The notes: generated by a model not told the origin, from the sequence alone. A DNA stretch of 64,000 nucleotides from Marsupella aquatica (GCA_973895155.1 OZ316893.1:14476645-14540644); one strand, 5' to 3'; positions 19,169-63,667 are shown, counted from the first letter of the stretch. Translations and numbers: made by a program.

Positions 19169-19512
19169 TAACATAAGCCCTTAGTCAATGCGACTCAAAG
19201 TTTAAACAATTACTACGGAGGAAAATTCTCAAAATTTGAAATCAAACAAACTTTGTTATAGCATTTGAAGTAGAGAGGAACGACCCTGGGGCAACCCTCC
19301 TAGAAAAACATTAATTACATTCAATTGCCATTTTTTAGATCCAAAGTATACCTGGGTCAAACCCTTCCTCCACAGCAACGCTTTCCGAGGGAATGCCAAC
19401 AAAATCCTTTGAGGAAGGAGATTCTACGACGGAACTTTGGTCTGTAAAAAAGTTTATTATTACAAAGATAAAGCTTAGATTGTCATTAAAATACCAAGAA
19501 CCAAAGAAAGGG

Positions 19513-27396: not shown

Positions 27397-27994
27397 ACCT
27401 GAATAATGTACATGCATAGTGCACCTGATGTGGATACCTTGGAGATTGCAGACATTCCAATTTTGAGAAGAAGGACCTCTGTAGGAGAGGATGCTTAGGC
27501 AACAAGTACCCTAAGTTCATTACTTGTTCCTGGGTACATGCCTTCAAAAACTCCCCTTAAGCCTTCTAGGAACTTTTTTAACTCTGCAATCATTTTGATC
27601 ACGACTTACATGACACTGCTTAAATTAAATCAGGACTTCTCATTATGAGCATATAAGTTACAAGGCTATTTAATTTGCGAGAATTCCCTTAAAGTGTACC
27701 AACATTTTGTATTCTCATTGAATGTCTGCCCATTTACAACATCTGTATGTGGCATCACAAAACAATTGCACTTGTCACCTTCAATATTGTGAAGGCACAT
27801 ATTCAAACTATGAGGTGCATGCTTGCAGGTGTCTAGTACGTTTGTCCCAATATTTCTCCCGTTTGGAATCGGAGCAGAGACTCACCAGACGATTGGACTG
27901 GACCAAGTTATAAACGCAGCATTTTAAGGGCCCTCCGATTATCAGGTGAACGCATTATCTTCCGGTCTGCAGTGATTAGGTGGCCCGTGTGTAC

Positions 27995-28843: not shown

Positions 28844-29531
28844 GGAGTAGGAGTCCCTCATATTTTTGTATAAATCACAATTTTGTAATAAATGTGATCC
28901 TTGAACTAACTCATCTTGTCATGGTTGGTCGCAGTTGAAGTGATTGTTGTTTCCTGCTGCGTGGGGTGTGACTGTGAATCTACTTGCTGGGCTCTGTTTG
29001 GCTGAAGACTTTGGTGGGTATGCTGCCTCTTCCAGACCGTCAGGCCCTATGTAGGGTCCTCCTACGGGTTGCATCGTGCATGGCTACTGCTTGGGCTTAC
29101 TTGTGTGGATTGGTAACCAGACAGAGTGTAGCTCCATCCGAGATAATGCCTACAGACCTTGGATGTGTTGTGAATGCTGTGGTGAATGAGGATGCACAGT
29201 CGGAAGAGGACATTTACTTTTCAGCAGATGAGTTAGACAAGCACGATGCTGTAGGTGGTTCCTTGTTGCCTGATTTGGCAGATGATATAGTTCTTACACA
29301 TGTCTGGCCGAGGGTTCTTGTGGTGTCTGGCGCACAAGATATCTGAAAATATAGACTAATTAGTACCCAGTGGAGGGACTTGGTAGCAACATGTGCACCA
29401 TGGAGGGCACTGCTGCCACTGCTTGTAGGCACGGATCGAAGACCACCATGGCATGAGCAGGGTTTAGACCTTGATGACTTAATGTACATGCCTGAGTACC
29501 TCAGGGCTGAGTGGCATCGACAACAGGATTG

Positions 29532-32500: not shown

Positions 32501-32668
32501 CCTCTCTAGAAGTGGAGAGTTGAAACTACTTATGTATGGAGTGATTGGACATTGTAAGCACACTTCAGAAGTTTTGTCAATCCTTTGTGACCTGGTATGA
32601 CATGGAGCAGGTATTAGGTAGTCTTTTGGGGAGAAAAGCCGCTTAAGCTCCTTGGCAAGTGTTTGACA
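29532..32668 (+). repeat. 5' LTR, 3137 bp
   Basis: TGTGGGATGG...GTTTGACA, repeated at offset 9294. Contains short internal repeats (gagcacgaggcaaggag x3 near 30330) and a diverged duplication at about 32084-32198 and 32263-32377. Confidence 0.97.
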
Positions 32669-32688
32669 TAGAGTCCCACCCTTGTTTT

Positions 32689-32706
32689 TGGCGCCGCTGC
32701 CGGGGA
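32689..32706 (+). promoter_or_regulatory. Primer-binding site, tRNA-Asp type
   Basis: TGGCGCCGCTGCCGGGGA, one mismatch from the Athila-type TGGCGCCGTTGCCGGGGA. Located 20 nt downstream of the LTR end. Confidence 0.85.
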
Positions 32707-32812
32707 CAACTCTTTACAGTTTTTGTTGGAGTGGAGCCACAAGACTTGGAGGTGTGTTTGCAGGTTTGCTGTTCAAGAGAAGAAGGGAGATAAGAAGGTG
32801 ATTGTGAGTGGC

Positions 32813-38785: not shown

Positions 38786-38812
38786 GTGTGTTTGCGGGGA
38801 CGCTGCACACTT

Positions 38813-38822
38813 AAGTAGGGGG
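38813..38822 (+). promoter_or_regulatory. Polypurine tract
   Basis: AAGTAGGGGG, ending 3 nt before the 3' LTR. Confidence 0.75.
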
Positions 38823-38825
38823 CTA

Positions 38826-41800
38826 TGTGGGATGGCTCAGTGTCAGCTAGTGTAGAGAAACATGACATTCTTTCGTTTAGAAGAGGAAATAGTTAGGGAA
38901 AAAGTTTTAGTGCTATCAGAGTAGCTAGGTTTAGGGCACTTAAGTAAGAAGGGAAGCTTAGTAGAGGTAAGAGGGAATTTAGTTATGCAAAGTTATCTAG
39001 GGGTAAGCAAGTTACTATAGGAGGGGCAGGAAACTAGTCCGTCCTTAGTTATAATAGGCGACTAAGTCGGGACCGAAAAATGACCCGACACCGGACATCT
39101 TATTTTTGGCTGATATTTCTCCCATGGGTGCTGGGAGGTCCCTAGGGAACCCTGAAAAAGTATGAAGTCAAGTGGGGTCTTAACCTAGGAGTTATAAGTA
39201 TTTTGGCAAAAATCAAAGTTACCAAATAGCGGGTCCCGGGAAAAATAGCTGATGGGTAAATGTAGGGGTTCCAAGTTTGGAAGTGGGTTAAGTATGGTCC
39301 CCTCTATCCCTAGAAACTTGTGGGACAACTTTGTCACACTTGGTTACTTTTTGGGAGCATCTCAAAGTTGAGAAGAATTTTGGAAGACATAAAGACTTGA
39401 CCCTCTTTGCCTAATTTTAGAAAAGTTGTTATAGGGTTTTGTTTATATCTTAGTAAACCCGGACATAGTCCTATGTCCATAGAATCAGTGGAGCTACTCA
39501 GAAGTCCTTTTGGACTTATGTGTGAGTTTTGGAGGGGGGTCCAAAATCGCCCCAAAATGCTGTTTTTCCAAAAAAAAATGTATTTTTTTCTAAGTGTAAA
39601 CCGCGTGGGCGACGATCACGCGGCGAGCACGAGGCAAGGAGGAGCGAGCACGAGGCAAGGAGGAGCAAGCACGAGGCTGGTGAGGACGTCAAGCACCGGG
39701 AGGCTGTCCAAAGGTGCTGCATGATTACTTGAGGAATCAATTGAGCACAAGGGCGGCTGAATTGAAGGAAGGGCGGCTGAATTGAAATGGCTGCTGCTGA
39801 TTGAAGAAGCTATGGCTGCTGAGAAGGAAAAGAGCTATGGCTGCAAATTAGGATCGCTGCTGGCTTTGAATTGGGAAGGCTGCTTGCTGCTATGACAGCT
39901 GCACACTAGATTAGAGGTGCTCCTACTAATCAGGCACGAGATGCTCATGAGAATTGGCTGGCTGCTGCCTTGATGCTGCTGAATTGAATGATGCTGCTGC
40001 TAGCTGCGAAATTGCAAAGGTGGGCAGCTACGAAATTGAGAAGAGAGACCTGCTTGACTGAGAAGGAATCAAGCTATGGTTGCTGCTGCTGTGCTTCAAA
40101 TCTGCTGTTGTTGTGCTGTAAATGCGCTGATGTGACTGTGCTGCTAGCTGCGAAATTGACTGTGTTGCTAGCGGCAAAATTGAAGAGGTGGGCTAGCTGC
40201 GAAATTGACTAGTCTGGCTGTGAGCTATGGTGGCTGTGAAATTGAGGGGCTGGCGGCTGATCAGCTGGACTGCTGCACAAGAAAGAATCCAATAGAGAAT
40301 GCTGTGGTTTTAGATTGAATTCACGAGAGAGAAATGGCTGCAAACATTGCTGTCCTTACAATTTCTTCATAAGAAACATGAGTATAATGAGAGTGCTCTC
40401 CCCTCATGACACGTGGAATCCCCATAAGGGGCATGTAAGGTAAGTGTAATCGGGCCGCCGCTTACACCCGCTTTACACCAAAAACAGGCCTTGGGAGAAT
40501 GGGCATAACTTTGGCTAGAGGTATCCGTTGGGGCCCAAATTTTTTTGTGCTGAGTTAGGGGAAGATAAGGCACCCCCTGGTGAAGGTGGAACCCCAGAAA
40601 AGTAATCACTCAAATATATTTTTAACCGAGGCCACGAGGGAGTCCCGACAACTTGCAAACCAAAGTCGGCATAGGGGAATGAATACCAGATTTAGGGGCT
40701 GACCTTTCTTGCACCCATACCACTTGAGTTAGGCTCTAGAGAAGGGTACTTACCTTTGGCCAAAGGTGTAAGGCCATCAAGTTAAGAAAAGTAAATATAG
40801 GGGGTAGTTTACTTAGGGTAGTAAAGGGGTTACAAGTAAAATAAGGCCAACTTTGACTAGGCACAACTTGAGACTCACTCACTCTTTTTGCGAGCTTTCA
40901 AGTGGGTTGGTAAGCTGGTGAGGAGGACCATAAGTGGGAGTAGGTTTGGAAGTCAAAGCATACCACTCATGTGTGGCATATTCCAGGGCTTGGAAGGAGG
41001 CAAAATAGCAAGTAGTAGGGTGGGCTATGAACTATAGAGTTGGACTTTGTGTGTTAGGAGGACTTGGGGGAGGTATAGTTGGACCCCAGGTCAAGCTTGG
41101 TGTGATGTGGAAGGAGATAGTATATAAGGAGGAAGTTTTCATTTGTTAGGGACCGGGAGTCTCATCTCTTAAGTGAAATCTCTACCTTGCCAAGGTAGGG
41201 CTAAGCTTGAGAAAGGAGAGGTGGTCCATGCTTAGTGTGGAGAATGTGTAGTGAACTTTTGTTGTAAAGGTGATGCAATAAAAGGAGACTTACCAATCTT
41301 CATTGTGACCATTAAGTGTGAGTGCATTTGAAGTATATGAGAGCAAGAGAAGAGTCCATGCTATGGTATAATCTTGGTCTAAGCTTGAAGGGGATGTGCT
41401 AGTACAAAACCAAGGCCAAGGAGGCAAGGTTAAGGTATAGCATTACTTTGAGACTTAGAGAGGATTATAGCTTGAGGGTGGAAAGTACTTTGCTTGGTGT
41501 GTGGTGTTAACAAGAAGTAAGAACAAGAGGAAGAGTCCTTAGATAGAGGAGCCTTCTCTAGGGCTCAAAGGGGATGTGTGGACCCAAACCAAGGCCAGGG
41601 GGGCAAGGTTGAGGGGTAACACTACTTTGAGGGTCTTGAGGAGACTTAAGCTTGAAGAGGAAAGTACTTTGGGTTCTTGGGTGTTTGTGTGAGAATCTAC
41701 TCTAAGGTGACAGCTTGGAGCGGAGATCCCCCTTGCTGATCCTTGGAGTAGAGGAGAGGGGAAGGGGTGAGTACAAAAGTAGTCAAGGGGACTACCTCTC

Positions 41801-41963
41801 TAGAAGTGGAGAGTTGAAACTACTTATGTATGGAGTGATTGGACATTGTAAGCACACTTCAGAAGTTTTGTCAATCCTTTGTGACCCTGGTATGACATGG
41901 AGCAGGTATTAGGTAGTCTTTTGGGGAGAAAAGCCGCTTAAGCTCCTTGGCAAGTGTTTGACA
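38826..41963 (+). repeat. 3' LTR, 3138 bp
   Basis: Near-identical to the 5' LTR; the ORF-track peptides are identical in both. The only difference noticed is one extra C near 41885 (gtgaccctgg versus gtgacctgg). Confidence 0.97.
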
Positions 41964-42314
41964 GATTGGTATCCGTATTTGATGTGGTAGTAAGATGAGG
42001 ACATCTCACACCGGTCTCACACCTGGCACCTGTGTCTATGACTATACATGATTGGACTCTGATATGGTCATGGATGTACGTGCAGAGGCAGTACATGTGA
42101 GGACAGCGGAGGAGTTGACACCCTCAAACATTTAGGAATTTTATCTCATTCACTTGAGAATAGGTACATGACTCAGGCACCTATATTTTTTGTTTTTTTG
42201 TTTTTTCGGAACGTTACGTATTTTGGCAAGTACAGTCGGGGGTGAAATCCTTAACAGGAAGTGTATTTTTCACTTGCATAATAAAATGACAGGGTGCTGA
42301 GTGCGTGTATAGTG

Positions 42315-45300
42315 ATGGCTCCAAGGTTGCCTCTTCACAACCCATTTAGGATTAGGCATCATGATTCTAAATTGTGGATGCGTGAACAAGCCCGGGCCGC
42401 CCAAGGTAGGAGTAGGAGGATGAGATGCCCATGCACACAGTGCCAAGGATTCAAGTCGTTGAGTTTGAACACTGTGCACCTTCACCTGCTGTGGCATGAA
42501 AGGCACCCTCGGTGGAGGGTTTGGAATGTACCAGCAGAAGAAGACTCCTCTGATGAAGAGTGGAGAGCTGACTTTGTGGATTCTAATACAGCTAGGCGTA
42601 GAGACTACGTAGAGCAGGACATAGACTGTGCAGAGGATGGTCCTGGGGTCCAACATGAGAACGTGGATGACCAAGATGGAGAGGCAGAGGCAGTCATTGA
42701 GGACGGTGGGATGGATGTCCCAAGAATGGTTCAAGAGATTTTTGAAGACCTTGATGCTTTTTACGACACAGTGGAATCAGAAGAGGACAATGAACCGCAG
42801 CCACACATTGGCGACGGCCAAGCTGAACCTGACTTTGACATTGGGGAAGGTGCAGCAGAGAGGGAGTGGGTGTTTGGGGGCCCAAAACACATCAAAGAAG
42901 CTTGCATTCCTATCTACGAGGGGTCGAACTGCTCCAAGCTGGGTTTTGTCGTGTTGTTGTTGAACATCTGTGGCAATCACAATGTTCCCAATATATTTGT
43001 GACAGAGTTGTTGACCTTCCTGCGCCGAAATGTGTTACCAGATGGTAATTCAATTCCAAAAAATATGTACGAGGCTAGGAAATTGATGTCTAACCTTGGG
43101 CTGAACTATGTGTCTATTGACGCATGCCCTGATGGGTGTGTTCTCTTTCGCAAAGAGCATGCAGATAAATTGACATGCCCTCATTGTGGTAAGCACAGGT
43201 ACAAGAATGTAGGGAAATGTACACACCCTGCCAAGGTTCTTCGTCATTTTCCTCTCATTCCTAGACTACAACGTCTATTTAGATGCCCTGCCATTTCCAA
43301 GCTGATGACATGGACTCTTGATAACAAGAGCAATGATGGCCTGCAGCGTCACATTGGAGATTCCAACCATTGGAAATTTGTTGATGAGAGGTGGCCACAG
43401 TTTGCTGCAGAGAAGCGGAACTTTCGATTTGGTCTATCACTGGATGGAGTAAACCCATTTGGAGACAAAAACAACCGTTATTCATGTTGGCCGGTTACGT
43501 TGCTAAATTACAACCTTCCCCCATGGATGACTACAAAGAGGTTTTTTGTCATGATGGTGTTGTTAATCCCTGGACCAGCTTCTGTGACCGAGCAATTCAT
43601 AGATATCATGTTGGCTCCAGCAGTGGAAGAGTGGAAGACTTTGTGGATAGAAGGGGTGTTAACCCATGATGTTCTGAAGGGGCTTCTTCGACCCAGCCCC
43701 TTTAGACTGCATGCAATTTGTTTGCTGGATATAGCAGATTACCCAGGCCATGGCATCATATCTGGACGAGTGACAAAGGGCTATGTGGGGTGCACACCAT
43801 GTGGAAAAAATGTGACAAGTGAGTGGTCGCATGCCCTGCACAGTATGAAATTTCAGGGGCATAGAAGGTATCTGCCTGTTGATCATCCTTACAGGCACAC
43901 ACGGTCTCAAATTGCACACTTCAACAACAAAACAGAGCTTCGTGGCCCACCACAGAGGGTCACCAGAGAGCAAGTCCTGAGGTGGGCAGCCAGGAAGGTT
44001 GATTGGGACAAGAGAAGTGCCACTGATCGAGAACCTGAGGATCCAGTGGTGAAACACGGTGTGAAAAGACAGACCTTGATGGACTTGGAGTTGGAGTACT
44101 GGAGGGTAATGTACTTAGCCTCCAGCCCCTGTATGATTGCAATTTTAGATTGGAGCAATGGTGGATTGATGTTGGTTACAATCCTCCTCTGTGGTTAATT
44201 AGTGTTTCTGTTGTTGAATTCTTTGCTTTGTGGAGTGCAGGAATTCGAGCCCAGCAAACACAATGTAGACGTCATGCACATTGAGAAAAATATTTGTGAG
44301 AGCTTGCTGAAGTTCTTGTCGGGTGAGAAAGATACAGGAGCAGTTCGAGCTGATATGCAACAGAAGGGGATTCGCCCTCACCTTTGGTTGAAGCCCCATG
44401 CAAGCAATCCCAATGTACTTCTCAAGTTCCAAGCTCCCTATGTGTGCACACAGGATGAATGGAAGACATTCTTGTATAGATTGAGCTGTCTGAAAGTGCC
44501 CTCTGGCTATGCTGGTGCCTTCAAGAAGCATATTACAAAGAATAAACTTGGCAGTATGAAAACACATGACTACCATGTGTTGATGCAGCACATTCTGCCC
44601 CTATGCCTTAGAGGTCTCATGCAGAAACCAGTCCGTAATGTCATTCTTCGACTGTGCAATGTATTTCGCCGTATATGTGTGAAAGTGTGGGATCCCCAAG
44701 GATTGGAGCAGTTGAAGCAGGATGCTGCTTATGTCCTTTGTGACTTGGAGATATACTTCCCCCCTGCTTTCTTTGATGTTATGACTCATCTCCTAATCCA
44801 TGTGGTAGAAGAGCTAGGGCAGTATGGGCCAGTCAGTACCAGATGGATGTACCCTATGGAGCGATACATGAAGTTGTTGAAAGGTCATGTGAGAACATAC
44901 TACAGGCCAGAGGCTTCCATGGCATTGGGGTACATTAAGGATGAGACGTTGGGATTCCTAACAGAGTACATGGCTGGGTCTGGTGAAGCTATGACAAGAG
45001 TTTGGAAATCTGGTGAAGATGATGGAGTGAGTGGCGAGGTTGTTGAAGGTGTGGGACGTGCTGTTCAGCTGCCTGTTGCAATTCGAGACAAGGCTCATTC
45101 ATATGTGCTGGCAAACACAGAGCCTATGCAACCATGGTGGAGGTGAGTGATTGAATTGACTTGTCTTTGTTGTGATGCTTCTTGTCTGTTCCAAGGGTGA
45201 TCTTAGGTTGTCATGTGTTGTTTAGACCTAACTATGCCTGTACCTCATATTGCAGGGAATATGATATGCAAAAAGCTGCACACTCTGGGCAGCAGGATCC

Positions 45301-46015
45301 CTTCCCACAGTTCGAGCAGTGGATTCGGGTGACAATTCGAGAGCATAGTAGACATCACCCAGATATGGAGAAGGATTTGTATCTTCTATCTGTGCCACCG
45401 CGATTGTCTATTCTGACCTACAAACGGATGAGAGCTTATGGAAATCATTATCGAGTGAGGGATGAGCAGGGTGACCATTGTGTATCATATGATTGTGGTT
45501 TGATTTCTGTGTTTGAGCAGAGAACCTCTGAAGAACAGAGGGGGTGGATGAAGATGGGTTACGTGGGGGAGTTGACCGACATTTGGGTGTTGAATTATGG
45601 TAACACAAGTGTCCCAGTGATATTGATGAAGGGATCATGGGTGAAATCAGAGTGGCAGAGACCAAGGGCCACCATGAAGCGTGATCATGATGGGTTCTTG
45701 TTGGCCAATTTTAGGTCCAGAGTACCAGAATGGTCTGAGCCTTTTGTTTTCCCTAGCCAAGTTGAACAGGCTTTCTTTGCAGATGTGGAGGAGTCACATG
45801 GCTGGAGGGTGGTATGCCATAGCCAAGCACGGAACAGGCGGATGGATGGAAGTAAAGTAGAGTTTAGTTTGGATGACCATGCTGCATTCGAGCATCCTAG
45901 TCATGAGACTGTACTTCCAACTCGGGCAGGGACTGACTACATCCCCTTAACATTGAGAGAGACATATGATGAACCTGGGAAAATGGAATATGATGAGGTT
46001 GATGATTTGCAATAG
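42315..46015 (+). CDS. CACTA TnpD-like transposase; predicted exons 42315-44105, 44241-45142 and 45256-46015
   Basis: CPCxxC transposase-associated domain, IDACPDGC, LRHFPLIPRLQRLF, GLSLDGVNPF, YNLPPW, DYPG, DVMHIEKN, MKTHDYH, WMYPMERY and EPFVFPSQVEQAFF. GT-AG introns keep the frame, so the gene appears intact. Confidence 0.93.
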
Positions 46016-46192
46016 GCAACAGCTGGCGATTGGCAAGTATGAGGTTGAGGATGACTACGTGCACAGAGTCACAGAACGGGAATTGCTGCCTGGAATGATG
46101 TTTAGGATAGTTGGATATGCATGAAATTGATTGATACTTTGAATTTAGTGTGCTGATTCTCCCTGTTTGGTTGTGGGTGCTGTGCAGAAGCT

Positions 46193-49100
46193 ATGGGGGA
46201 AGAGGGTGATGACATGGAGACAGACATGGGGCTTGGAGAGTGGGGTGAAGAGGAAAGATTGGATATGGATGGAGACCTAGATGCAGGGGGCTCACAGAAA
46301 AATGCACCTGTGCAAGATGCACAGGGCCCTCATCAAGTCCCAGGTAGGTGGGCAGCTAGAGAGAAATCACATAATCCATACCTTAGAAGGAGCCAGAGTT
46401 ATTGGCAAGGGACGCCTGATAATTATGATGATGACTATGATGGAGCAGAAGATGGATGGGATGAATATGAACACCCAGAGCGTGGTAGAGACGGGTACAG
46501 AGGGCAATGGAAAGGTGAGGAGGATGATTGGACAAGTAAGTGCCTTGTGCTAGTGATTTTGTGATGGTAGTAGAGATTTAGCTCAATATGCACTTATCTG
46601 ATGTGTAGCTAGGGCAAAGAGTTTATCTTACAGGTCCATGAGTGTGGCATGTACCTGTTGGTATGCAGACTCTGATTGGGACAATCACGAAAACAACAAA
46701 GGCCATCCACGTTCAGATAGGAGGCAATCATTCACAGGCGGGAGAAACGCCCCTAATTCATCAAGACAAAGCAATAGGACAGGTGGTCCAGAACCATCTA
46801 TGCACCAAGGGAGAGGTAACTTGGTCATTGCAGAATTGCTCCGAAGTCCATTGTATATTTGGCAGTGGGATTTATGATTCATACTTACCTAATGTAAGTG
46901 ACTGTAAATGGATCCTGTAAATGTGCAGGGACTCCAGGGAGGTTTGGACAATGCAATCCAGGCCGTGGGGGGAGATCAGGCCGTGGAGGGACCCCAAGCC
47001 GTGGGGGGACACCAGGCCGTGGAGGGACACCTAGTAGCGCTTCAGGGAGTACCAAGGCAGGAGACAGTAACAAATTTGGTAAAGTAGAAGTGAATTCCGA
47101 AGGTTGGATAACTCCCACATGTGATGGTAAGAACCGTTGGCATTCTGACCTAAGAGGAGAAGTATTGCGTTGGTTAGATTTGAGCATTACAGAGTTTAGG
47201 AGTCAGAACAAAGCTGATTGGGCTGCTATCTGCAAGGACATTCTTGAACGGTGGGACTATGTTGGTAATGATGGTAAGGGCCCAGTTGAAGATTGCATAT
47301 CAGATTATGCAATGAAGATTTTGAAACAAGAGAGGCATAGGTTGAAAAGGATGTGGATAGACAATGGTTCTAACAGGAGAATGCCACCACCCCCATCATT
47401 GGAACTGGATCAATGGACACGGTTAATCAAAGGGTTCATGTCGGAGGCTGGACAGAGCAAGAGTGAACTAATGTCAAATGCTCGAGGCAAAGTGAAACAC
47501 CTTTCACAAGCTGGGAGAGGAAGTTATGCTCCAGTGAAAGAACAATTGGTAAGGCAGTGACATGCCTGATAGTAAGCCTCAAACTTATCATCTTGCTACC
47601 ATTATTACATTTTCATTGACAATCAACACTTGGTTTCATTCATATGTATGTTGATGTGGACTGCAGAAGAAATTGACAGGTGAAGAACCATCAGCACAAG
47701 AAGTGAGAGAGGAGTTCATGAAACAAAGGAGTGAGGTGACAAGTGTGACTTCCAAACAGGTGATTATGTTGTAATTATGTATGTTCTGTGACTATTTGGC
47801 CTTGAGCATCAGAAAGAAATGTAGTAGGAAGTAAGCAACCAGTTCTTGGGGACAGTTATCTGAGATATGTAAGCTGTGTTATGATAGGGAACTGTTACAA
47901 CTCTCACAGAGATGTGTGAACGGTTGAAGTCATTAGAGTGTGGACTCCCTCGAGTGGAAAGTAAATTGGCTGATCGTTTGGATATTGTGGAGGCATCTGT
48001 AGCGAACCTTCTTGCATCAGTGGAATCTAATTTCAAGCTTGTGATTGAAAAATTGGGTGGTTCCCAACCAAACAATGAGGGCAACATTGTACAAAGTGTG
48101 CCCTTGTTAACAAAAAAGGGAATTGGAAAATCTGACACAGGTATGGAAATGACACCAGCACATTGTTCATTGTGTCCTATGTTCAAATGTTAGAAGTAAG
48201 TTTTCATGAATTGAGTGAATGGTTTGAATGCAGGAAGAGTGGAGGCAGAGAAGGACCCTGTAATCAGTAAGCAGAAGGGCAAGAAGGTTGCTGAGACAGG
48301 TAACCTGCTATGATCCAGTACATTACATTTGAAAAGTGCATGGAGTTTTGTGAAGCTTAAGCCGGTTGGAGGTAATCTTTTCTGTAAGAACTGGTTGGAT
48401 GAACTGGGATCTGAAGTGACATCATGATTGATGTATCAGGTGATTCAAAGAGCAATAATGAAGAAGATGTGCCCAGTGCCTCAGTGACCATAGCCAAGGA
48501 GGTATCAAGTAAGCTGATGCTTTAAATTCCTCTATATGAATGTTGAGCAACAATTCAGTGGTTAATAGATTCAACCTGAATATTGTGGTGTGTTTATTGA
48601 TCAATAGAAGCAGACATGGAGCATATGGCAATGGCAAAGAAGGGGAAGAAGGCTGTTCATAATGGTAAGGAGATAGTGACAACTTTGTGGTTGGTGACAT
48701 GTACATTTAGCACATGTGATGAGTGATTGACTTATGTTGGACATGACACTGAATTGTAGTTGATGCAGAGTTGACAGACTCTCAACCAAGTGGGAGTAGG
48801 GTGAAGCGACGTCGAAACTTGGGAGCAACATTGGATGCAAGTAAGATTGTAGATGCTTCAATTGAAGCAAGTACAATGTTGGCAGATACTGAGATGATGT
48901 CGCAGGGAAATCCTACTACACAATCAGAAGTGTCAAATATGGATGCAGATTCTTTGAAGAAGAGTGTAGCCAATTCTTGATCACCAGCACAAAACACTCG
49001 TGCCAAAGTCATGACTCGCAACCAAGGTATGAATAATGTCATGTATAAGCCACCCAGGAAAGCCAAGAAAAACAGCCAGGGTAAGGTGGAGGTGATAGCC

Positions 49101-49360
49101 ACAGCAGAGCCAGTCCATAATCTTCTATCATGGGAGGATGACTCGCAGGTATGTGTGGGTACAGGCATTTTGCGACCGAATCATGCAAAATTCCATGGCA
49201 AAGTGGTCCCGGATGACCATGTAGTAGTGTTGTTGACTACAGTGATTGTATCTGATTGTAATTTGCCATTTCCGAATAGAGACGATGATCCACCTCAGGA
49301 AATAATTGCAGATGCAGTAGGATCTCTTGTGCTCTAGCCATCAGAGTGTGTTAGTCTGTA
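46193..49360 (+). CDS. CACTA TnpA-like second gene, multi-exon, possibly degenerate at the 3' end
   Basis: Series of plus-strand exons with GT-AG junctions: acidic N-terminus, RGG repeats, a helical domain (LKQERHRLKRMW...DQWTRLI...SELMSNAR), a coiled coil, and a C-terminal domain VGTG...FHG...LPFP...DAVGSLVL ending in a stop where Trp would be expected. Confidence 0.65.
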
Positions 49361-49809
49361 GTAACTGAATGCAAGTGTAGATAGAATCATGTGAATTGTG
49401 TCACATTTTGACATTGCCTTGGAAAGATCCAAGAAATATCTGTACCAGTTTTTCCATTTGGTAAAAAGGATGAAGGAGACGTTGTGTGTGACATTGATAT
49501 TTCTGAATTCTGTATGTATGAAACAAGTGATTGATGTCAAACTATGGCTCTATGGTGATTGTCTATGATACTTGAATCTATTTTATCATTTCAGTATTAG
49601 TGTGTATGGTATAGAGGAATACTTTGTGACCTTCTTTGTAGTCTATGAAGTTTGAATCTGTGAATTCATATTAGTGTGGTGAACTTATAGAGTGAGTTCA
49701 TTCCAAGTACACAATAAAACATGAATGCAATATGTTATTTGTGCACAAGAGTGGGTTCATTCCAAGTAGTATAGTGGGGTCTTCATCACTCATATCCAGT
49801 TGACATGAA

Positions 49810-50100
49810 AGACTTATACATACCCCACAAAGTATATTTAAAGACTACCCTCCATAACCTTTTTAGTCGTTCCCAACGACTCATCATCGCAGCCCATAAA
49901 AGACTGAAAACGACTCACCAAAGCTACCCACACAAAGACTAAAATAGACTGAAAATCCAGTCTATTAAACGACTTATAAACCAGTTCTATAAAGGACTCA
50001 GTTGATTATAGTAACAAAACATACGACTCGCAGTCCTATAAAGGACTGGAGTCCTTCCCAGTCGTTTCCAAGTCGTATACGGTACTGAATAGTCGTTTAA
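49810..50100. repeat. CACTA subterminal repeats
   Basis: More than ten short (A/C/G)GACT or AGTC(G/C) cores (aaagact, aacgact, agtcgtt) in both orientations next to the right TIR. Fewer copies lie near the left TIR (20778-20895). Confidence 0.65.
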
Positions 50101-50133
50101 TGGGGTCTAAATACCCCCCGGTTTCTACTAGTG

Positions 50134-53019
50134 TTGTAAGAAAATTTGCAATTAAATCCAGGCCTGAACACTTGCTTCCAATCAAATTTCTCCTCAGTGG
50201 TGATTCCTGCAAAGATTATCTCCTCCATACCACAACTGAAAAGTAAGCCCTCTGGAACTGGTGTATCACTCCGTCGATAGCTCCCGTAGTCGACGTGTAT
50301 GTCCATTCCCTTTTCATGTTGCAATTTCCTAAGGGCACTCAAAATGTTTGCAGCAAGTGGCCCCGGATGCACAGTCATGACAACAACAATTGTTGGATTT
50401 CTTGGAAGATCCACAATGTATTGCAGTAATGCAATAATTTCAGCATCGGTCCAAACATGTTGTCGGAGCCTACTGAAGTCAACAATGGCAAGAGGACACA
50501 AAGGCGAAGGCTCTTGTAGCATTTCTGGAACGGTCGTCTTCATCAAATTCTCACTAAAAAATGTCAAGAAAGGCTCCGTGCGAGAACGACCAATCCCACC
50601 AAATTCTTTACAATACAACCCATCTAGTCTGACCATCAGACTTTGTGGGAAACTCTCCTTGACCACATTCTTCTTCAATGAATTGTTGAGGTAAACCTCA
50701 CCCGCTGCTCTCCTCAATTTTGTCATCTCAAGCTCAGATTTCAAGGAAGGCAACAATATCACCAGAGACTCCCAAGATGTGCCAACAGGAAACTTCTCAC
50801 GATACTTTTCCACGAAATAGCCAATAATGACTGTTCTCAATTTGGACATTATCTTGATTGTAAGGGCCAAGTCTCCCATTGCGACAAGCTCTGATTTGTT
50901 GGTGATATCCTTCTTCAGCAAGACACGCTCCTCTTCAATGTCCTTCAAGATCTCAATTATCTGTTTGCTACTAATCTCTCCTTCAAAGCATCGAAAGGTA
51001 CCGGGAGTGATCAATTTTGGGGGTCTTGGCCCTCCATACCCACCAGCCCCGTCTTGGAGCTTCCCACTCAACCATTTTGCACACACGTTCCGCCATAATT
51101 CAAAGAGCTCATCTTCGGCAAAAAGTAACCAATAAATGCTCTTTAGGCTTGACTTCCCCATTGTAACCTTTGCCAGGGCAAACCAATCCTGCATATCCAA
51201 TGGACTTGACATTAGTTTCAGGGTACAATGCATATGTTAGAAAATTTATACCTATGTTTGAAACAGGCTAAGCCACCTCGCCCCAAGGGTGTGGCGAACC
51301 TCTACATCTAACCGCAATTGACTGAAACGGAACTAGGGAATTATTCTTAGAGAGACTAGTCTAGGTTGCCTCGCCCTGAGGGCGAGGAAAACATTTGCTT
51401 TAATCTTCTAACCAAGGAAAATAAGAAAAGGCAGCCTCGCCCTTGGGGCAAGGCAAACCTCTACCATTGACAATCTTTAAACAAAGCGGATCAAGAATAG
51501 TTTGCGTTGCTCTAACATGTACCTGATAGTTTTTCCTGTCTATATTTTGATTGGTCCCAATCCCTGGACGCGGCGGTTTCCTGCACTCCTCAAACTGCCT
51601 TCGTGCATGAACAATAGTCTCTAAAAAACAAGACTTAAATTGCATAGTATCATTGACAGCATTCGATAAACTTGAATGCTCAACCAAAATTGTCTTTGGA
51701 GTGAGGTCAGATAGGATCCTTGCTTTCCTATACTTTAGTTTGTTGGCAAGATCTGTCAGCTTGGCGTCAGTCTCGGCCCACCCTTGGATCCATTGGGCAG
51801 CTCTTGCAGAATGCTGGCCACTGATGGCAAGGAATTGGATCTCATGCTTCTTCACACCAATCAAAAACTCTTTCCTATCCTGAGGTGTGTTGTCATAATG
51901 AAGCAACTGTTTAGTGCTCTCGCGATACGGAATCAAATCAGCAACTTGTGGTTCCTGTCCAGGGTTTTTCATCATAGACTTTGATATCTCCATTGCATGC
52001 GAAAGATTGAACATTCGATATACAAAAATGGCCGATGGCGGATTAATACTTTTTACAGGAATATCAAAAACTTCGCGGATGCCAAAAGTATAATACTGCT
52101 CAATATTACGCAAAACCTCTTGGCCTTTGAGCACATCATCTTCTTTGGGTCCTTCTGTCGGACACATATCATCCTCTGGATGCAAGACAAAGTTTGAAGT
52201 TGACCCTGACATTGGTTTTGATTTTGCAACCTTTGCCTTCTTTGTTTGCTTTTTTTGGGGGCCCTCATCGTCTTCATTTTTTTTAGCCATCTTCTTACGG
52301 CGTGAACTCCCAGATTGTTTCTCTTGTTGAACAACCGGCTCTTGAAGCTTTCGTTTCTTCTCTGTCTTTGATTGCACACTTCTTTCCACTGTCTTCTTTC
52401 TCTCCTTTGCCTTATGCTTTGCTTCTTTTTTCTTCATCTCTGAAATCCACGTCCGGCACGCGGCCTCTTGAAACTCTGGACAAAAAATGAAACTCTTGTC
52501 GATTGCTTGCTCGTATGAAAAATGTGCCTTATCAATCATCCTTTGGACTATCCAAGTAGACGGAGGGTCCACACTGTCCGCATTGTCATGCATGTGCTTC
52601 TTTACGTAGAGAAATCCAAACACTAGGTCAACTCCACTTATTTGAGAACGCGTCTTCTCAAACATCTGATCAATTGTTACTCCATCTGGGAAGAATCCCA
52701 TATCAGCTACGCTTATCTCCAATCGAGCCATCCACTCAACATTCAGTAAAGTCAAGTAGAGTTTTATTGGCACTAGAAGTCTCATCCACTGAGATTTCTC
52801 ATTGGACTCAACAATAATCGTTGCATTGCGGTTGTTGTCCGTGTTCACAAGGACGACTGGACCTAGAGTAACAATTGTCTTGCGGTCATTCAATTGACTT
52901 GTGAGGCCCTTGAAACAAATCAAGAGACTGCCTTCCGCCGACACCCCAACTTCTAGTGCCCATCTAAATCCTGGAGTATCTTGGTCAGGGAAAACAAAGT
53001 CCTTGATATCCTCGTCCAT
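50134..53019 (-). pseudogene. 5' part of the ParB-like/MTase-like fusion gene; exons 53019-51523 and 51188-50134; interrupted by CACTA
   Basis: ParB/Srx-like segment FDIPVKSINPP...YRMFNLSHAMEISKSM...FLAISGQHSARAA after a Lys-rich linker. Phase-0 GT-AG intron 51522-51189. The second exon has a strand ending LAIVDFSR at the position expected for MTase motif IV. Confidence 0.7.
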
Positions 53020-53219
53020 AATATTTAACTCCGGCTTCTCAAGATTTTTTCCTGGTAAGAAACATTGAAAACAAAATGGTCAGCATCATATTTTTAACAT
53101 TGACATGTGGAAAACTTTCAAGGTGCCTCGCCCTTGGGGCGATGCGACAAATAGAAGATTGCAAAATCTTCTTTGCTCCTAATTAGCCCTGCCACCTCAT
53201 CCAAGCAATCAAACATTAT

Positions 53220-53590
53220 TTAGGAATGCAGACGATATCGCCTCGCCCCAAGGGCGAGGCAACTTCTAGGAAAGCAAACAATATTTAGGAATGCAGACAA
53301 CGTCGCCTCGCCCCAAGGGCGAGGCAACTTCTGGAAAGCAGACAACATTTAGGAATGCAGAGGACATCGCCTCGCCCCAAGGGCGAGGCAACTTCTGGGA
53401 AAGCAGACAACATTTAGGAATGTAGAGGACATCGCCTCACCCCAAGGGCGAGGCAACTTTTGGGAATGCAGACAACATTTAGGAATGCAGATAACATCGC
53501 CTCGCCCCAAGGGCGAGGCAACTTCTGGGAATGCAGACTACATTTGAGGAATGCAGACGACATTGCCTCGCCCCAAGAGCGAGGCAAAAA
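53220..53590. repeat. Six-copy tandem array of about 65 bp with a 21-bp palindrome GCCTCGCCC-CAA-GGGCGAGGC
   Basis: Palindrome starts at 53240, 53305, 53369, 53434, 53499 and 53565. Further dispersed copies at 53125, 53682, 51275, 51368 and 51434. Confidence 0.95.
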
Positions 53591-55132
53591 ATAGAATATA
53601 GCTAAAGATCCTTTATTAATGTAAGATACAAGGTCCAATACGCCTTCCGAGCAACAAGAAATCTAGAATGAAGTAGACGTCGCCTCGACCTTGGGGCGAG
53701 GCGACTGCAAAGGAATATAGAAATTTTCCTAATAAGAAGTTTGAAATCCAAATTAAAGTAAAGTTGGCGAGGCAAGAAGTTGAAGCAGGTGGTGCCTTAC
53801 ATGGAAAAGTTAACTGGGCTTTCTTTGACGCCTCCAACGCATTGTTAACCAATTTTTGGACATCTGGGTCTTCAGGGTCATATTCATACAGAGAGTTATA
53901 ATTGAAGTTCAATGACTCTTGAGAACTGGCGGAGGTGGTGGAAGCTTCAGAACTGGAGGAAGTAGACATTGTAAGGGGCGAGTGAGATTTAAGATGACAT
54001 GTGGCAGCAATGGAGAATGCCACAGGCTGCAAGAGGGCACTAACAGGCAAACAATGATCGAGGGAGCGACCCAAAAGGGAAGGGAGCAAGGCGGAAATAA
54101 AAGCCTTAGAGCGAGGTGGAAAACAAATCCCAAGAGCGAGGCAAAAACAAAAGCCCTAGAGCGAGGCAAGAGGGAGGCAAGGAGTGAGGAGACGAGAGAG
54201 GAGGCAAGAGGGAGGCAAGGAAATGAGGCCTCAAGCGCAAGGCCTGCCTTCCTATACCCCCTGCGAGCGAGGAGTCCGAGGAGGCAAGGATCCGAGAGGG
54301 TACGGAGGCATCAATGTGCGCCAATGATGGAGACCCTCCTCGGTGCATGTGATCATGAGTCACCGATGGTGTGACCACTCACGACCACTCGCGACTCACC
54401 TACCAATTTTAAACTTCCGAGCTGTCAGCGGTGTGTGCTTGCAACTCACCTATCACTCGTGAGTGATTGGCTGACACCCTATCCGATGTCTACTTGTGTG
54501 CTGGGTGCGTGCCTCATCCACCCGTGCCCGATCTGTTGGTGTCCACTCGTGTGCTGGGTAATGTGTGGGCTTTTTGCCTCTCAAACTGAGTATAGACCTC
54601 CCACAATCCATTTTTTGGTTCATTGTCATTTAGACAGTGATTGGTACAATCACTGACTCTCCTCTGTCCGAGTGCCTTGTTTAGGTCCGCATGGTTGAAT
54701 GCAAGGTTTAGTAAGGGCACTGGTGAGCACTGTGGTGCTAAGAGTTACAATACTGGCATCCAAGGTACCCATTTAGCTTGTACAAGGGTGGACAGAGATA
54801 TATTGCAGAGCAGGTTAGTGATTTTATTTATTTATCTTAGAAGTACTAGCTCAACTACATCTAATTCAATACCTTTAAGCCAAACCTAGATTAAGATTTA
54901 CACATTAGGTTCTAGATCATATATTTTACTCATTCTAGACCTTTATCCACAATCTAGCATGTGTAGAACTTACTGTACCCCTTTATGTGATTACTAACAT
55001 AGTTTCTAGAAGTGGGTCGGAATTATTTCGTGCCGACCTGACTATGTCATCTTAACTAGCATTTTAAACTGGTATATAAAAGCATAAGCAAGATAGTTTC
55101 ATAAATAGTTTTGACATAATTTCAACTTAATA

Positions 55133-55533
55133 GTTGGAGTAGGGTCGAAATAATTCCGACCCAACTTATCAATGTTTAGTCAATTAAATCATTTTAAGAC
55201 ATATTGTTGGAGGAGGGTCGAAATAATTCCGACCCGACTTGTAAATGTTTAGTCAATTCAATCATTTTAAGACATATTGTTGGAGGAGGGTCAAAATAAT
55301 TCCGACCCAACTTGTAAATGTTTAGTCAATTCAATCATTTCAAGACATATTGTTGGAGGAGGGTCGAAATAATTCCGACCCGACTTGTAAATGTTTAGTC
55401 AATTCAATCATTTCAAGACATATTGTTGGAGGAGGGTCGAAATAATTCCGACCCGACTTGTAAATGTTTAGTCAATTCAATCATTTCAAGACATAATGTT
55501 GGAGGAGGGTCGAAATAATTCCGACCCGACTTG
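55133..55533. repeat. Six-copy 73-bp tandem array with palindrome GGGTCG-AAATAATTC-CGACCC
   Basis: Palindrome starts at 55142, 55215, 55288, 55361, 55434 and 55507. An inverted diverged copy is at 55014. The array ends about 130 bp upstream of the transposase ATG. Confidence 0.95.
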
Positions 55534-55659
55534 AATGTATTTAGGGTTTTGAGTGATTTTACAATATTTTTTGGAGGAGAGTCCAGATTTTGAAACATGA
55601 TTGTAACATGGGGAACTTAACAATTTCTAACTTTATTTGAATACAGATAGTCCGCTATC

Positions 55660-58600
55660 ATGATCAATTTTACACGAGGGGATGAAGTGTCATTGGTGAT
55701 CGATGGATTTGAAATGGCAATTGGGATAGTTCAAAAGGTTGACCCCCAGGATACTATACAGAACATTTGTCTAGGGGACAATCGAATTGGGGTATTGATC
55801 GAAAAGTGTTTTGATAGATCGCGTCAACTTCCATTTCCTTCGCCCAAATTTTCTACATTGGCTGAGGCAATTGACTCCTGCGTGATTTGGGATTGTGCAT
55901 TGGCATACTTGAGGTCATCAACTCAGCGCCGAAGAATCAATGTCGATGATTTCTCTTTGGCTGGAGATGCTGGAAATGATAAATCCAAAATTGATGCAAG
56001 GGTTGAAGAGGACGTGTTCAAGGAAGGAGATGAAGTTCAGATGTTCATTTTTGATCAGTTGGTTGCAAATGGAGTCGTTTTCAAGACAAATCCGATGGAT
56101 ATTTGTCATACTGAAACACTCGAGGTTGGTCGCATCAGTATAAGAATATCTGATATTGTTAAGGGAAATCAAAAATTGCCATACTCGCACCCTGGAGCTG
56201 ATACAATAGAAGAGGCCTTGCATACCTGGGTTATCTGGGATGTTGCGCATGTTTCTAGAAAGGGCACTCTACGAGATTTTGGCGTGTTTGGTAGTTCAAA
56301 TATTTTCAATGATCTCCCATTAAAAGATCTTACACTACGTTCCAACTGGATGGCGGAGGAGGTTGATTTGTATGACGCTTCTCGTTGTCGAAAGGTTGCA
56401 ACAGGTCTTATCACGGTCCCATTTGAAACAGGTGCCATTGACGATGAACTTCTTGGTGCAGATCATGTTGGTGTTGCTGTTGTGAATATCAATGAACCCG
56501 GATTATTTCCAAATATCCGTGTTGGTACCCCTGGCTTGGTGAGGTGGGAAATCAAATCCCTTCTATTGATTTCGTCTCAAAGGTTTCTTGGGGATATCCT
56601 TGAGGAAGTTTCAAAGAAGTGGATGGAGTCGGGTCGAACTAAGGGCGATCCGGATTCGGATGGTGATGGTAAACCTACAAAAAGACCATACAATTTCATT
56701 AGGAGGACAAAAGTTGATCTTGAGGAGAGGAAGAAAAGGCATTTGGAGTCGAGGGCACTTTTGAAAATTAATGAGGAGTCCATTGATTCCATCCAAAGAG
56801 AAGGTTGTTGCAAGCTGAAGTGTTGCTTGAACATGCCCAGGGAGGACTTAGAGGCAATGAGGAGGGAATACCATGGAATGTCAAGTGACAACAAAACAAG
56901 TCACATCTTTAGTCTCTTTGGGTGTAGAGAGGAGCAAGTCAAGAGAAAGGGATTTTTTGTTCTAAAGGGACGTGTGGTTTGTAAAGATGCATTTATTAAA
57001 ATGCATGGGTTCAGTACAACAAAGTACTATGACTACAAAAATCAATACGAAGCTGGTTGCACAATTGGTTTCCATGGAAATCAGGGACAACGGAAGACAT
57101 GATCAAGCACTTTGCACGCTCGCGCCTTGTTGGAGTCCATTTTAATCCAAAATGGGGAACCAATGCCACATCTTCCCTATGGTGGGTCCAACGGCACTGA
57201 CACTATTGAATATCGGCTCCCATCTTGTTTTACTAAGAAGGAGATTTTCCAAGAGGTGTTTACCAAGATGGAATTAGATGGGTTTGCTAAGGTTACTGAA
57301 GTTACTAGGTACAACATCTGGAAAAACTCATTTGATAATTTTGACTTTCACAAGGGAAGTGCATTTGCCAAATGCACATTTTGCACTGAGTTCAAAGATC
57401 AATTGATGCGGGAGAAGAGAAAAAAAGAGCGTGCAGAGATTGAAGAGAAAAGAGCGCGACATCTTCGTGAACAAATGTCAAGAAGATATGTTTACTATGC
57501 TCATAGGGTTCTTGCAAAGAAGGATCCTCAAAATTATCTTTGCATTATTCACGATAAGATGGATCAAGCCAAGACTTGGATCCCCAGGTTGGTCCCCACT
57601 CCAAAATCCCTCTCTGGTAGTGGTCAGCCTTTGCCTATTGCTCTTACTGGGATGTTAACCCATGGAAGAGATCCTGGAGTGTATGCACATTTCAGTTTGA
57701 CTGGACTTTGGCCTGGAGATGCAGACTTTACCGTGACATCTTTGGCCAAATGCCTCCGAGATTTGGAAGATTACACAGGAGACAAAACTGGAGACCTTCT
57801 TGAAGGATTGAATTGGAATGCAACTAGGCCAATATTTCAGTCCCTTCTAGACTTTGAAGCATTTCTGGCCGGTTACTTGGAACCCAAAAATGTTTCAATT
57901 GTTCGATTTCAAGGCATTGAAGATGGTCAGGAGACTAAAAAGTCAAGCACAGTGGATGTTGGTTCTAAGGATGATCCTGAGACTACTAGGGGCTCTTTCA
58001 AGCCCTTACCAAGGCACCTAACGTTGCAGATGGACAATTCAGGGAAAGCTAACAAAAATCAATATGTGATGGCATTTTGCACTGAGCTTGTTAGCAGGGG
58101 GTGTTTGAAACTGTGCAAATGTCATTCCTCATGGTTGGCCACACCCATGAAGACGTGGATGCATTATTTTCTCAAGTATCCAAACAGGTCAGATACAAAG
58201 AGGTTGCTACCCTCTTGGGGTTGATGGCTGAGGTTTGGGAGTGTGAAAGCATTCATCCTGTACCACGATTGATTCAAGAGGTTGCATCTTACAAGGAGTA
58301 TTTGAAAACTTTCCAGGTGAAAGAGATAGAAGGTCACTCAAAACCAGTGGCATTTCTTTTCTCCATGAGGGATAATGTGCCAGTGTATCAATATAAAGCA
58401 CATGTCAAGCAACCTTGGCTTCCGGCAATGGGGAGGTCCATTTGGAGAACTGATCCCATCACAAATGCGCTCATTTTACCGGAAGGCCAACCATTTGCAA
58501 AACCTATATCTGGGGATGTACAAAAGAAGGCTGGAGAAATCATCCCATTCCTTAATCGCTATATTGATTTCTTGAAGAAAAGTTGTAAGGATGAGACCTC

Positions 58601-59374
58601 TGCAGCATATAAAGAGAGATTTCCTCTGGTCAAATATTGGGAGAATCTTGTGCAAGCATTGTCCGAGGAACTTACAATAGAAGGGGAGGGGGGAATACAT
58701 TTGCCATTGACAACTGATTTTTGGCCAAAGACTAACCATGGCACAGGTTACAAGATGATTTTGGGGACATCTCAGCCGTCAAGTGAACCTTCTCAAAATC
58801 CAGAGATGATGGACCTTCAAAATGAGTACATGGAAGAGATGGAAGATCAAGCTGCACCCTTTGTTGGTGCACGACAAGAGCGAGAACCTGCACGTTGGAT
58901 TCCTCTACAAGATATTCAAGAAGGTCACTTTGTATTTTTACGTCCAGAGGATGAATGGGAATAGGAAAATGGCAAAGGGCGTTTCTGGTTGGTTCGAGCT
59001 TTGGGTGGTGTGGATCCAAACATGAGGTTCCCTCAACAGATTTGCAACATATTGAAGGGTCTTCTTCAACGTCTGTTGAGAGCATTCCTCTCAGGAATGC
59101 TCCTATGTTCCAAGTACAATGGTGGAGGCCTAAACATGGTAAGCATGATGCAAAGGATGATGTTCGATATGAACGTTGCTTTCAAACCACTAAGACTTGG
59201 GAGCTGGATCCTAGGTTTGACAATGTTACTCAAAGTTGGCAGTTTGCAAATTTTGCAATGTATGGGTTTAAGTCAGGTGCTAAAGAACAAAATATTATGG
59301 ATAGAGGTTTGACAATTCCTAAGAATGTTTTGAAAACTCTCAAAATTTACATGGAAGGTATAATTGATGAGTAG
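55660..59374 (+). pseudogene. Sola-like/DUF7869 DDD transposase, about 1230 aa, disrupted
   Basis: CCxxxC...VCxxxF region, FAKCTFC, IIHDKMDQ, LQMDNSGKANKN and SFLMVGHTHEDVDALFS. In-frame stops at 57100-57102 and 58962-58964; frameshifts near 58100 and about 59030. Confidence 0.85.
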
Positions 59375-60049
59375 ATTGATAGAACTCGTAGGTTACAAGT
59401 CTCCACTCAAATGACTTGTGATTAAGAGGGTCGAGTTGATTTCCATGCGTTGGTCTAAAGTGAGAGAACAAGACAATCAAATTAATACTCTATGATCTCT
59501 CAAAGCTATTGAATGGACTTTCTTATAATTATTATTTTATTTGTCTTAGTATATTTTAATTCTAGAAAATGATGCCATTTCATTCCTTCTAGTAGGTTGG
59601 ATATCATCCTAGTTAACTTTGTCTAGACACTATAGTCATTCCATTGTATTGGTGCTTAGTTAGATATCTTACTCAAGCTAAATGTTTTGAATATAGATGC
59701 TATCCAAGCTTATATGTTATTACTAGATTCTATCTATTTTCCAACCAAATGAACACTTTTATCACCCAAATGTTTTTTAATATCATCCAATTTAATATTT
59801 TACTTTCCCAAAATTTCATTTTTTTGGTCCCCAAATTTACATTTAATGATGCTTGAATTTTCATTTTTCATCTTCCAAATTTACAATTTTCATGCCTAAA
59901 ACTATGTTTTTAAATCGCCAAATTTCCCTATATCCTTTATAATTTCAGTTTTAATGAATATAGTGATACATAGTTAGAACCTCTTTGGCTCCACATTGAA
60001 AAACTAAATAATCAATCTCCTTAATACTTGATGAAATCTGTCAAAATTT

Positions 60050-63662: not shown

Positions 63663-63667
<5 letters not shown>

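Follow-up and report, generated by a model that had tools for sequence, protein, structure and literature searches.

Transposons that carry a ParB-like accessory gene have been published for algae. In Ectocarpus, the element Sola1-1_Ec32 encodes a protein with ParB and N4C/N6A methyltransferase domains opposite its transposase, and binding or modification of its own element by this protein was proposed without test (PMC12477816). In Bostrychia, Plavaka (EnSpm) elements with the genes PAG2 and PAG3 hold inverted-repeat arrays beside the ParB-like PAG3, for which self-binding was likewise proposed without test (10.1101/2025.02.11.637652). Fusions of ParB-helix-turn-helix and methylase were reported from chlorophytes and chytrids by Iyer et al. 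2016 (PMC4738411), and in Arabidopsis the sites of VANC, the accessory protein of VANDAL elements, accumulate as tandem repeats in introns (PMC5735166). We analysed a stretch of 64,000 nucleotides from the liverwort Marsupella aquatica (GCA_973895155.1 OZ316893.1:14476645-14540644, called the window below), in which a terminal-inverted-repeat DNA transposon carries, opposite a DUF7869 transposase gene, an accessory gene for a protein with a ParB-like fold. The same element holds one family of two-armed palindromic sites, with about 20 copies in two sequence variants. Judged from the sequence, we give a probability of about 0.62 to the reading that these palindromes are putative binding sites of the element's own ParB-fold accessory protein.

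The element resembles Sola1-1_Ec32 in being a large transposon with terminal inverted repeats and an opposite-strand accessory gene that holds both domains; the 4-bp target duplication of the Sola superfamily (PMC10741241) is one possible reading here. It differs in that the brown algal element measures 21.5 kb, with 282-bp terminal inverted repeats and AACCG ends, whereas the land-plant element is 12.9 kb with 33-bp repeats. The available text on Sola1-1_Ec32 names no binding motif and has 0 occurrences of 'palindrom' (PMC12477816), whereas here the sites are defined; as far as the two systems can be compared by description, the catalytic motifs are degenerate here and a HAD-like module follows, unlike in the algal protein. 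With the Bostrychia Plavaka elements it shares a ParB-like accessory gene adjoining inverted-repeat tandem arrays, and a PF01555 methylase is carried in both. As described for Plavaka, in text that likewise gives no site sequence, ParB forms a fusion with a 2-oxoglutarate oxygenase, and a gene of its own encodes the methylase together with SET; here ParB and the methylase-like part form one protein, the transposase is of the DUF7869 type, and the sites come in two variants that also stand in introns and coding linkers. The likeness to VANC/VANDAL lies in an element-encoded accessory protein and a short motif multiplied by tandem repeats in non-coding parts, which for VANC are introns and upstream regions, with varying copy number; VANC motifs, however, are 9 bp long, non-palindromic and run in one direction, VANDAL elements are Mutator-like, and VANC binding and demethylation are experimental, whereas the present case is drawn from sequence only (PMC5735166). 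The design has already been published for algae; new here are its occurrence in a land plant, the definition of the site and the signs of selection. Our literature search found no land-plant report, although site sequences may be contained in subscription journals or in bioRxiv supplements, the Bostrychia repeat sequences among them.

An earlier note on this DNA had listed eleven 21-bp palindromes within and upstream of a ParB-like gene. All of them are present at the positions claimed: the pattern GCCTCGCCC-N3-GGGCGAGGC has exactly 11 matches at up to 3 mismatches (starts 51275, 51368, 51434, 53125, 53240, 53305, 53369, 53434, 53499, 53565 and 53682); shuffled sequences gave 0.01 on average and never more than 1. 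Four of these A-type sites are perfect, six have 1 mismatch and 51275 has 3. The arrangement described in the note was also recovered. Six sites lie in a 65-bp tandem array of 5.7 copies (Table 1), 53125 and 53682 are flipped, with the spacer TTG instead of CAA, and the five dispersed copies keep the 21-mer with a weak RTY..RAC flank and not the 65-bp unit. Three sites stand inside the gene's own intron, which was upheld by the Calypogeia proteins P0004 and P0010 reading through it; the eight sites that had been called upstream are probably situated in the first intron of the gene. The sites 51368 and 51434 are spaced 66 bp apart and may form a second small tandem, and loose ends of sister contigs suggest one more unit there. 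The claim of half-sites held in part. Three 9-mer half-sites (53765, 54134 and 54159) are genuine, if modest (two or more, as at 54134 and 54159, were reached in 11 of 500 shuffles). The 6-mers GAGGCA (7 copies) and GCGAGG (4 copies) are enriched in the tract, each count being reached in 0 of 500 shuffles; they carry little weight, lying as they do in a GA-rich tandem repeat, and TGCCTC/GAGGCA is found 66 times across the window.

The palindrome that had been noted is one part of a broader, bipartite motif, TCG-N9-CGA, whose second variant and lone sites had not been listed. A B-type palindrome, GGGTCGAAA-TAA-TTCCGACCC, is also 21 bp long and occurs at 7 sites with 0 expected; six of them form a 73-bp tandem array that is likely to lie within the first intron of the transposase gene. 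The A and B palindromes share their length, the 9-bp gap and the core G-x-x-TCG-N9-CGA-x-x-C (also written G-S-S-TCG-N9-CGA-S-S-C), and their repeat units of 65 and 73 bp are unrelated. All 14 exact matches to G..TCG-N9-CGA..C lie inside the 12.9-kb element and 0 in the other 51 kb; the shorter TCG-N9-CGA has 15 matches within the element and 1 outside. Within the window, the motif is confined to the element. A joint matrix trained on the 18 non-coding A and B sites recovered two further sites in coding DNA, at 20117 (26.0 bits) and 56631 (25.3 bits), neither of which was in the training set; at 20 bits or more there were 0 matches in 2 Mb of null sequence, and outside the element none reached 14 bits. 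Each of the lone sites combines A with B features, and the two are found by single-family matrices as well, at ranks 1 and 3 with the A-only matrix, whose top hit outside training is 20117, and at ranks 4 and 2 with the B-only matrix. They stand in protein linkers: that of 20117 is not conserved in the homologues P0012 and P0013, and around 56631 positions 56613-56730 are unaligned in a diverged contig. The possible decayed site at 17968 is uncertain, being the top non-training match of the B-only matrix (15.9 bits) and scoring only 5.8 bits with the joint matrix. The palindrome feature is real, and it is likely to be functional.

The family is high-copy in public sequencing runs; in bins of 50000-60100, depth came to 30/30 in organisms A and B, 30 in organism C and 23 in organism D. 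Sister copies were compared over intron 2, using contigs from three organisms, reads of at least 80% likeness and 40 of 46 difference rows. The motif, whose absence from sister copies would have spoken against the earlier note, is kept there. The four arm differences listed are all towards the consensus, and three of them reverse CpG-type transitions of the window copy. These four and position 51422, all of them private to the window, were excluded from the counts that follow. Among non-arm positions of intron 2, 28 of 280 vary in X3 and 31 of 280 in X6, as compared to 0-1 and 0-2, respectively, out of 54 positions in the arms; these bounds were obtained by tallying the 6 remaining rows by hand against the change-type counts. 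One-sided Fisher tests of the arms against the rest gave p values of 0.006-0.034 (X3) and 0.003-0.07 (X6). The arms thus vary less than their surroundings despite being CpG-rich, and show signs of being under selection. Among the loose ends of the contigs, one from organism C has the third site complete; the loose ends also show an additional repeat unit and a diverged intron in which a GGGCGAGGC arm is retained. In organism A (run X1), a second, diverged family is present, about 81-86% identical in the coding parts.

The designation of the gene as ParB-like was supported by structure comparison, the middle domain of the protein having a ParB/Srx fold. Its model (predicted local distance difference test, pLDDT, 76.6) has Noc and ParB as best Foldseek matches (E 7.6e-4) and aligns to KorB with VIA Z 8.9 and a root-mean-square deviation (rmsd) of 2.7 over 94 residues. 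The model of the spliced homologue P0004 (pLDDT 81.7) matches M. xanthus ParB with Z 9.8 and rmsd 2.5 over 95 residues. Helices are predicted in P0004 at 169-182, 198-215, 221-227 and 231-245, and the match to DNA-bound KorB (8qa9) runs through helices 198-227 to residue 192 of KorB (Z 7.2, rmsd 3.8, 137 aligned). We take the KorB stretch aligned to these helices to be its helix-turn-helix region. The P0004 model also matches most of pNOB8 ParB (Z 6.9, rmsd 5.1, 198 aligned), and Spo0J 42-208 was matched with Z 4.0 and rmsd 4.4 (154 aligned). On these predicted models, the accessory protein likely has a helix-turn-helix after its ParB domain. The ParB assignment rests on structure, since sequence searches of Pfam (best DndB, E 0.03), NCBIfam and PDB sequences gave no significant ParB match. 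Dynein clusters that came up for the ParB domain in the protein atlas were sub-threshold only and were discarded.

The ParB clamp depends on binding cytidine triphosphate (CTP), for which the motif is the GxxR arginine patch, and parS is 16 bp long. GxxR was found in 0 of 80 motif matches among 168 proteins; SGQHS-type sequences stand there instead, 60 of them exactly SGQHS. A CTP clamp is therefore doubtful, and on the tested motif the accessory protein appears to fall outside the CTP-clamp ParB family. The description of the sites as parS-like is supported as regards a ParB fold with confined, conserved palindromes and is doubtful as regards a literal parS/ParB clamp. Like ParB-parS, Noc-NBS and KorB-OB (6sdk, 7bnk, 7ol9, 8qa9), the system combines the N-terminal fold, a helical segment at the helix-turn-helix place and palindromes near the gene. 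Unlike them, it has a 21-bp site with a 9-bp gap, a methyltransferase-like fusion and introns in a eukaryotic host, and no ParA partner was seen in the element. The sites and the protein would resemble a ParB/parS pair in working and VANC targets in layout.

The methyltransferase-like domain follows in exon 3, where PF01555 was matched (E 0.0016), as it was in five homologues, all scores being below the curated cut-off. Its nearest solved relative is M.RsrI (E 0.002). The domain is of the beta-class N4C/N6A type with permuted order, in which motif IV precedes motif I. The 6 homologues that contain motif I have D(F/I/L)FSG(G/S) there. The catalytic xPPY was found in 0 of the 10 homologues examined; motif IV reads D-F/L-x-x, and IVDFS in the window. 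The domain probably serves as a non-catalytic module for DNA contact, which is more likely than a role as an enzyme.

Several observations weigh against binding by the accessory protein as the role of the sites. X3 and X6 come from the same organism. The site at 51434 is lost in some contigs (joint 51432>51517 in X3, X5 and X6), and 11 bp are deleted from site 51368 in one contig of X5, so that single sites are dispensable; a mismatch at 51292 is apparently common to most copies. The 0.016 matches per element expected of the core under the null is an optimistic value, the core having been defined only after both arrays had been seen, and its confinement was examined across the 64-kb window only. 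What links the two variants is the core they have in common and the two hybrids, since the B array is missing from the top 14 new matches of the A-only matrix and the A sites likewise from those of the B-only matrix. The inner arms are complementary within each array, as a hairpin would need. Finally, most ParB and Noc chains align with the N-terminal domain only, the helix-turn-helix match being weak, and the missing GxxR counts on the same side.

The strongest of the alternatives, and still an unlikely one, is that the sites are bound by the transposase, or by a splice product with its three N-terminal domains, as happens with TnpA and the AtMu1 transposase, which bind to the elements that encode them and activate these; the ParB-like gene would then be incidental. 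The B array is just 5' of the transposase frame and one site is inside the frame, weak B-like sites lie 0.3 kb (17968) and 0.5 kb (59428) inside the two ends of the element, and the N-terminal repeats weakly resemble the domain of the accessory frame of a nested CACTA element (48981-49334, E 0.02-0.04); transposases can act as sequence-specific activators (10.64898/2026.08.24.746577). Yet the terminal inverted repeats are without the motif, the strong sites keep at least 2.4 kb from either end, and in Plavaka ParB-like genes accompany inverted-repeat arrays with a different transposase. Next, and likewise unlikely, the arrays would be neutral or structure-driven repeats, either slippage-prone GC-rich hairpins or stem-loops of intron RNA, that share a core by chance. 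Such an origin would suit the 12 of 18 non-coding sites that are in tandem arrays with copy number varying between contigs, the folding of the A sites at -12.0 kcal/mol, the complementary inner arms in both arrays and the loss of individual sites. It does not account for two lone mixed-arm sites in coding DNA, for a length, gap and core common to two unrelated units, or for arms that vary less than their surroundings despite their CpG content. At 56631 the inner arms pair poorly (-4.6 kcal/mol), which fits a sequence reading better than a hairpin. No Rfam match was obtained in 50134-60000, and the dispersed copies have no ends or duplications like those of miniature inverted-repeat transposable elements; the origin from an unrelated element of that kind or a satellite, raised in the earlier note, is not apparent.

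A host dimeric transcription factor recruited to drive both divergent genes is the least probable explanation. The clustering of the sites near the shared upstream region and the likely first introns would agree with it, whereas sites also stand 4 kb inside the accessory gene and within coding linkers, and 51 kb of the same genome outside the element gave no match. We know of no plant factor with a TCG-N9-CGA site, no search aimed at one having been made. Slightly less remote, and still quite improbable, is the proposal that the accessory protein methylates the sites (N4-methylcytosine, 4mC, or N6-methyladenine, 6mA) as a self-marking system. The Ectocarpus protein was predicted to make 4mC or 6mA (PMC12477816), Marchantia has 4mC enzymes (10.1101/2021.02.12.428880), and the PF01555 matches and the kinship to M.RsrI point the same way; the Marchantia enzymes, however, retain TSPPY (10.1101/2021.02.12.428880), whereas PPY is lacking from motif IV in 10 of 10 homologues here and the Pfam scores stay below the cut-off. 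Methylation of the sites, which the earlier note had offered under the name of modification sites, is thus doubtful.

If the accessory protein does bind the palindromes, two copies of it, as a dimer, would each read one arm of 6-9 bp through the helix-turn-helix, the two CpGs of a site being 11 bp apart and on the same helix face. Tandem duplication in introns and protein linkers would multiply the sites where the cost is low, and only copies of this family would thereby reach a high site density. The bound protein would then act on its own element, either shielding it from host cytosine methylation as VANC does for VANDAL, or aiding transposition. Of the outcomes that binding could have, protection from silencing in the manner of VANC is the most probable, which we hold tentatively and at somewhat short of even odds; it is favoured since the behaviour of the sites matches that of VANC targets. 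In its fullest form the proposal is doubtful: liverwort transposons would have a bacterial-type system of site and reader, in which a ParB-derived dimer with a dead methyltransferase fold reads TCG-N9-CGA, with the CpGs separated by one turn of the helix, and protects the element from host CpG methylation or releases it from this, the A and B arrays and the hybrids recording a site that shifted with the protein. If true, land plants would have a second sequence-specific system against silencing, evolved independently of the first, and it would be at hand in a lineage that includes transformable models. Should binding and anti-silencing hold, the protein would stand beside VANC (and TnpA of Spm) in countering host silencing for one family of elements; it would derive from a partition protein of prokaryotes, and epigenome engineering would gain a long-site DNA reader. 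The element offers a concrete site in two variants, for which the natural hybrids and decayed copies could serve as internal controls, and its land-plant family has numerous relatives in Riccia and Calypogeia.

Table 1. Features of the transposon and its sites, in window positions
Feature	Position	Strand	Remarks
Left terminal inverted repeat	17674..17706	+	First base 17674-17677 depending on target duplication
Possible decayed B-type site	17968..17988	.	Both CpGs changed; 0.3 kb inside left end
NIF/FCP1-like HAD phosphatase-like pieces	18146 to about 19009-19190	-	PF03031, E 4e-10; stop-interrupted
Weak site	19277..19297	.	Likely intron; 15.3 bits (null about 0.04 per element at >=14 bits)
Exon 3 distal	19516..20740	-	Motif I region DFFSGG, low-complexity linker, conserved C-terminal block
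Lone hybrid site	20117..20137	.	GGGTCGCCC-TCA-GGTCGACCC; coding DNA, protein linker
Nested CACTA element	20741..50133	+	TTG duplication; ends CACTAGTAGAAACCGGG; 29.4 kb; splits accessory gene
Exon 3 proximal	50134..51188	-	Predicted helix-turn-helix, helical domain, first half of methyltransferase-like domain
Intron 2	51189..51522	-	A-type sites 51275-51295, 51368-51388, 51434-51454
Exon 2	51523..53051	-	N-terminal domain, basic linker, ParB/Srx-fold domain (~51523-52176)
Candidate intron 1	53052..53800	-	Would hold 53125, 53682 and the 65-bp array
65-bp tandem array	53218..53587	.	Six A-type sites GCCTCGCCC-CAA-GGGCGAGGC
Three half-sites	53765..54167	.	53765, 54134, 54159; last two in 25-bp tandem repeat
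Dispersed reversed B-type site	55014..55034	.
73-bp tandem array	55133..55533	.	Six B-type sites; 5' of transposase frame
DUF7869 DDE-like transposase gene	55651..59371	+	PF25273, E 7e-15 and 1e-22
Lone hybrid site	56631..56651	.	GGGTCGAAC-TAA-GGGCGATCC; transposase frame, linker
Right terminal inverted repeat	59936..59968	-

The accessory gene runs on the minus strand, opposite the transposase and inside the terminal inverted repeats, and its exons in the window were joined by homology. The named homologues are from the liverworts Calypogeia fissa and Riccia sorocarpa, and a profile search gave 145 proteins at E <=0.001. The ParB-like and methyltransferase-like domains occur in one protein in P0087, P0133 and P0102 (Riccia sorocarpa), and P0012 and P0013 are unbroken across the CACTA insertion point. 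The N-terminal domain (52450-53020, minus strand) has about 190 residues and is conserved without belonging to a Pfam family. Candidate intron 1 has splice signals at donor 53800 and acceptor 53052, and homologues have a similar acceptor-like stretch before the conserved start. When the candidate exon 1 frame (ATG near 53970) is joined to exon 2 via donor 53800, a stop arises at the junction; exon 1 may therefore be untranslated, or the donor may differ. No longer homologue of exon 2 was found among 4986 candidates, which is weak evidence. The HAD/NIF-like pieces may be the 3' exons of the gene. HAD phosphatases usually have DxDxT as first motif; here it reads DLNK, so the module is possibly non-catalytic, a third such domain travelling with the element. 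Locus scans for distant relatives with flanks found none in metagenome contigs (queried with the ParB alignment and P0016) or in viral contigs. A search of public sequencing runs returned 8 runs with the family and no RNA run among those listed.

The host transposon extends from about 17675 to 59967 and measures 12.9 kb once the nested CACTA element is removed. Its terminal inverted repeats have 33-nt arms that are 91% complementary, and in this single copy the flanks fit equally a 4-bp ACAT duplication (ends 17675/59967), a 6-bp TACATA duplication or three 2-bp duplications. In the window copy the transposase gene is interrupted: a stop lies near 57100, and the reading frame shifts near 58100 and near 58960-59020. 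The acidic motifs of the transposase are HDKMD, QMDNS and GHTHEDVD. The N-terminus (55651-56600, plus strand) consists of three small beta-rich domain repeats (34% identity between r1 and r2, E 5e-13) that had no Pfam match, the transposase core had no relevant match among PDB sequences, and our literature search found no paper naming DUF7869. Replitrons have a Rep HUH/HUQ transposase, 2-4 kb length and short direct terminal repeats (PMC10288648), and a Replitron reading was rejected in view of the 12.9-kb length, the inverted ends and the DUF7869 transposase.

The nested CACTA element is without the core motif, and contigs of X1 and X5 cease matching at its boundary, 50134. It has Transposase_21/DUF4218/DUF4216 frames, and its left part encodes NSD-type PHD fingers (26689-27393) and two BRCT domains (27980-28840). 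Inside it, a Ty3-type retroelement with long terminal repeats (LTRs) occupies 29532-41963; its insertion is very recent, given 3.1-kb LTRs that are 99.97% identical and one open frame of 2037 codons. Outside the host transposon, two diverged copies (about 70%) of an AT-rich repeat flank it at 12078-12871 and 61331-61936, and a weak 70-74-bp repeat family lies at 60034-60494. Judged from translation, 3500-7073 (minus strand) holds stop-broken frames of a reverse transcriptase and an endonuclease like those of long interspersed nuclear elements. At 63664-64000 (plus strand), a host gene starts after a (GA)26 tract; from its motifs, we take it to resemble malic enzyme.

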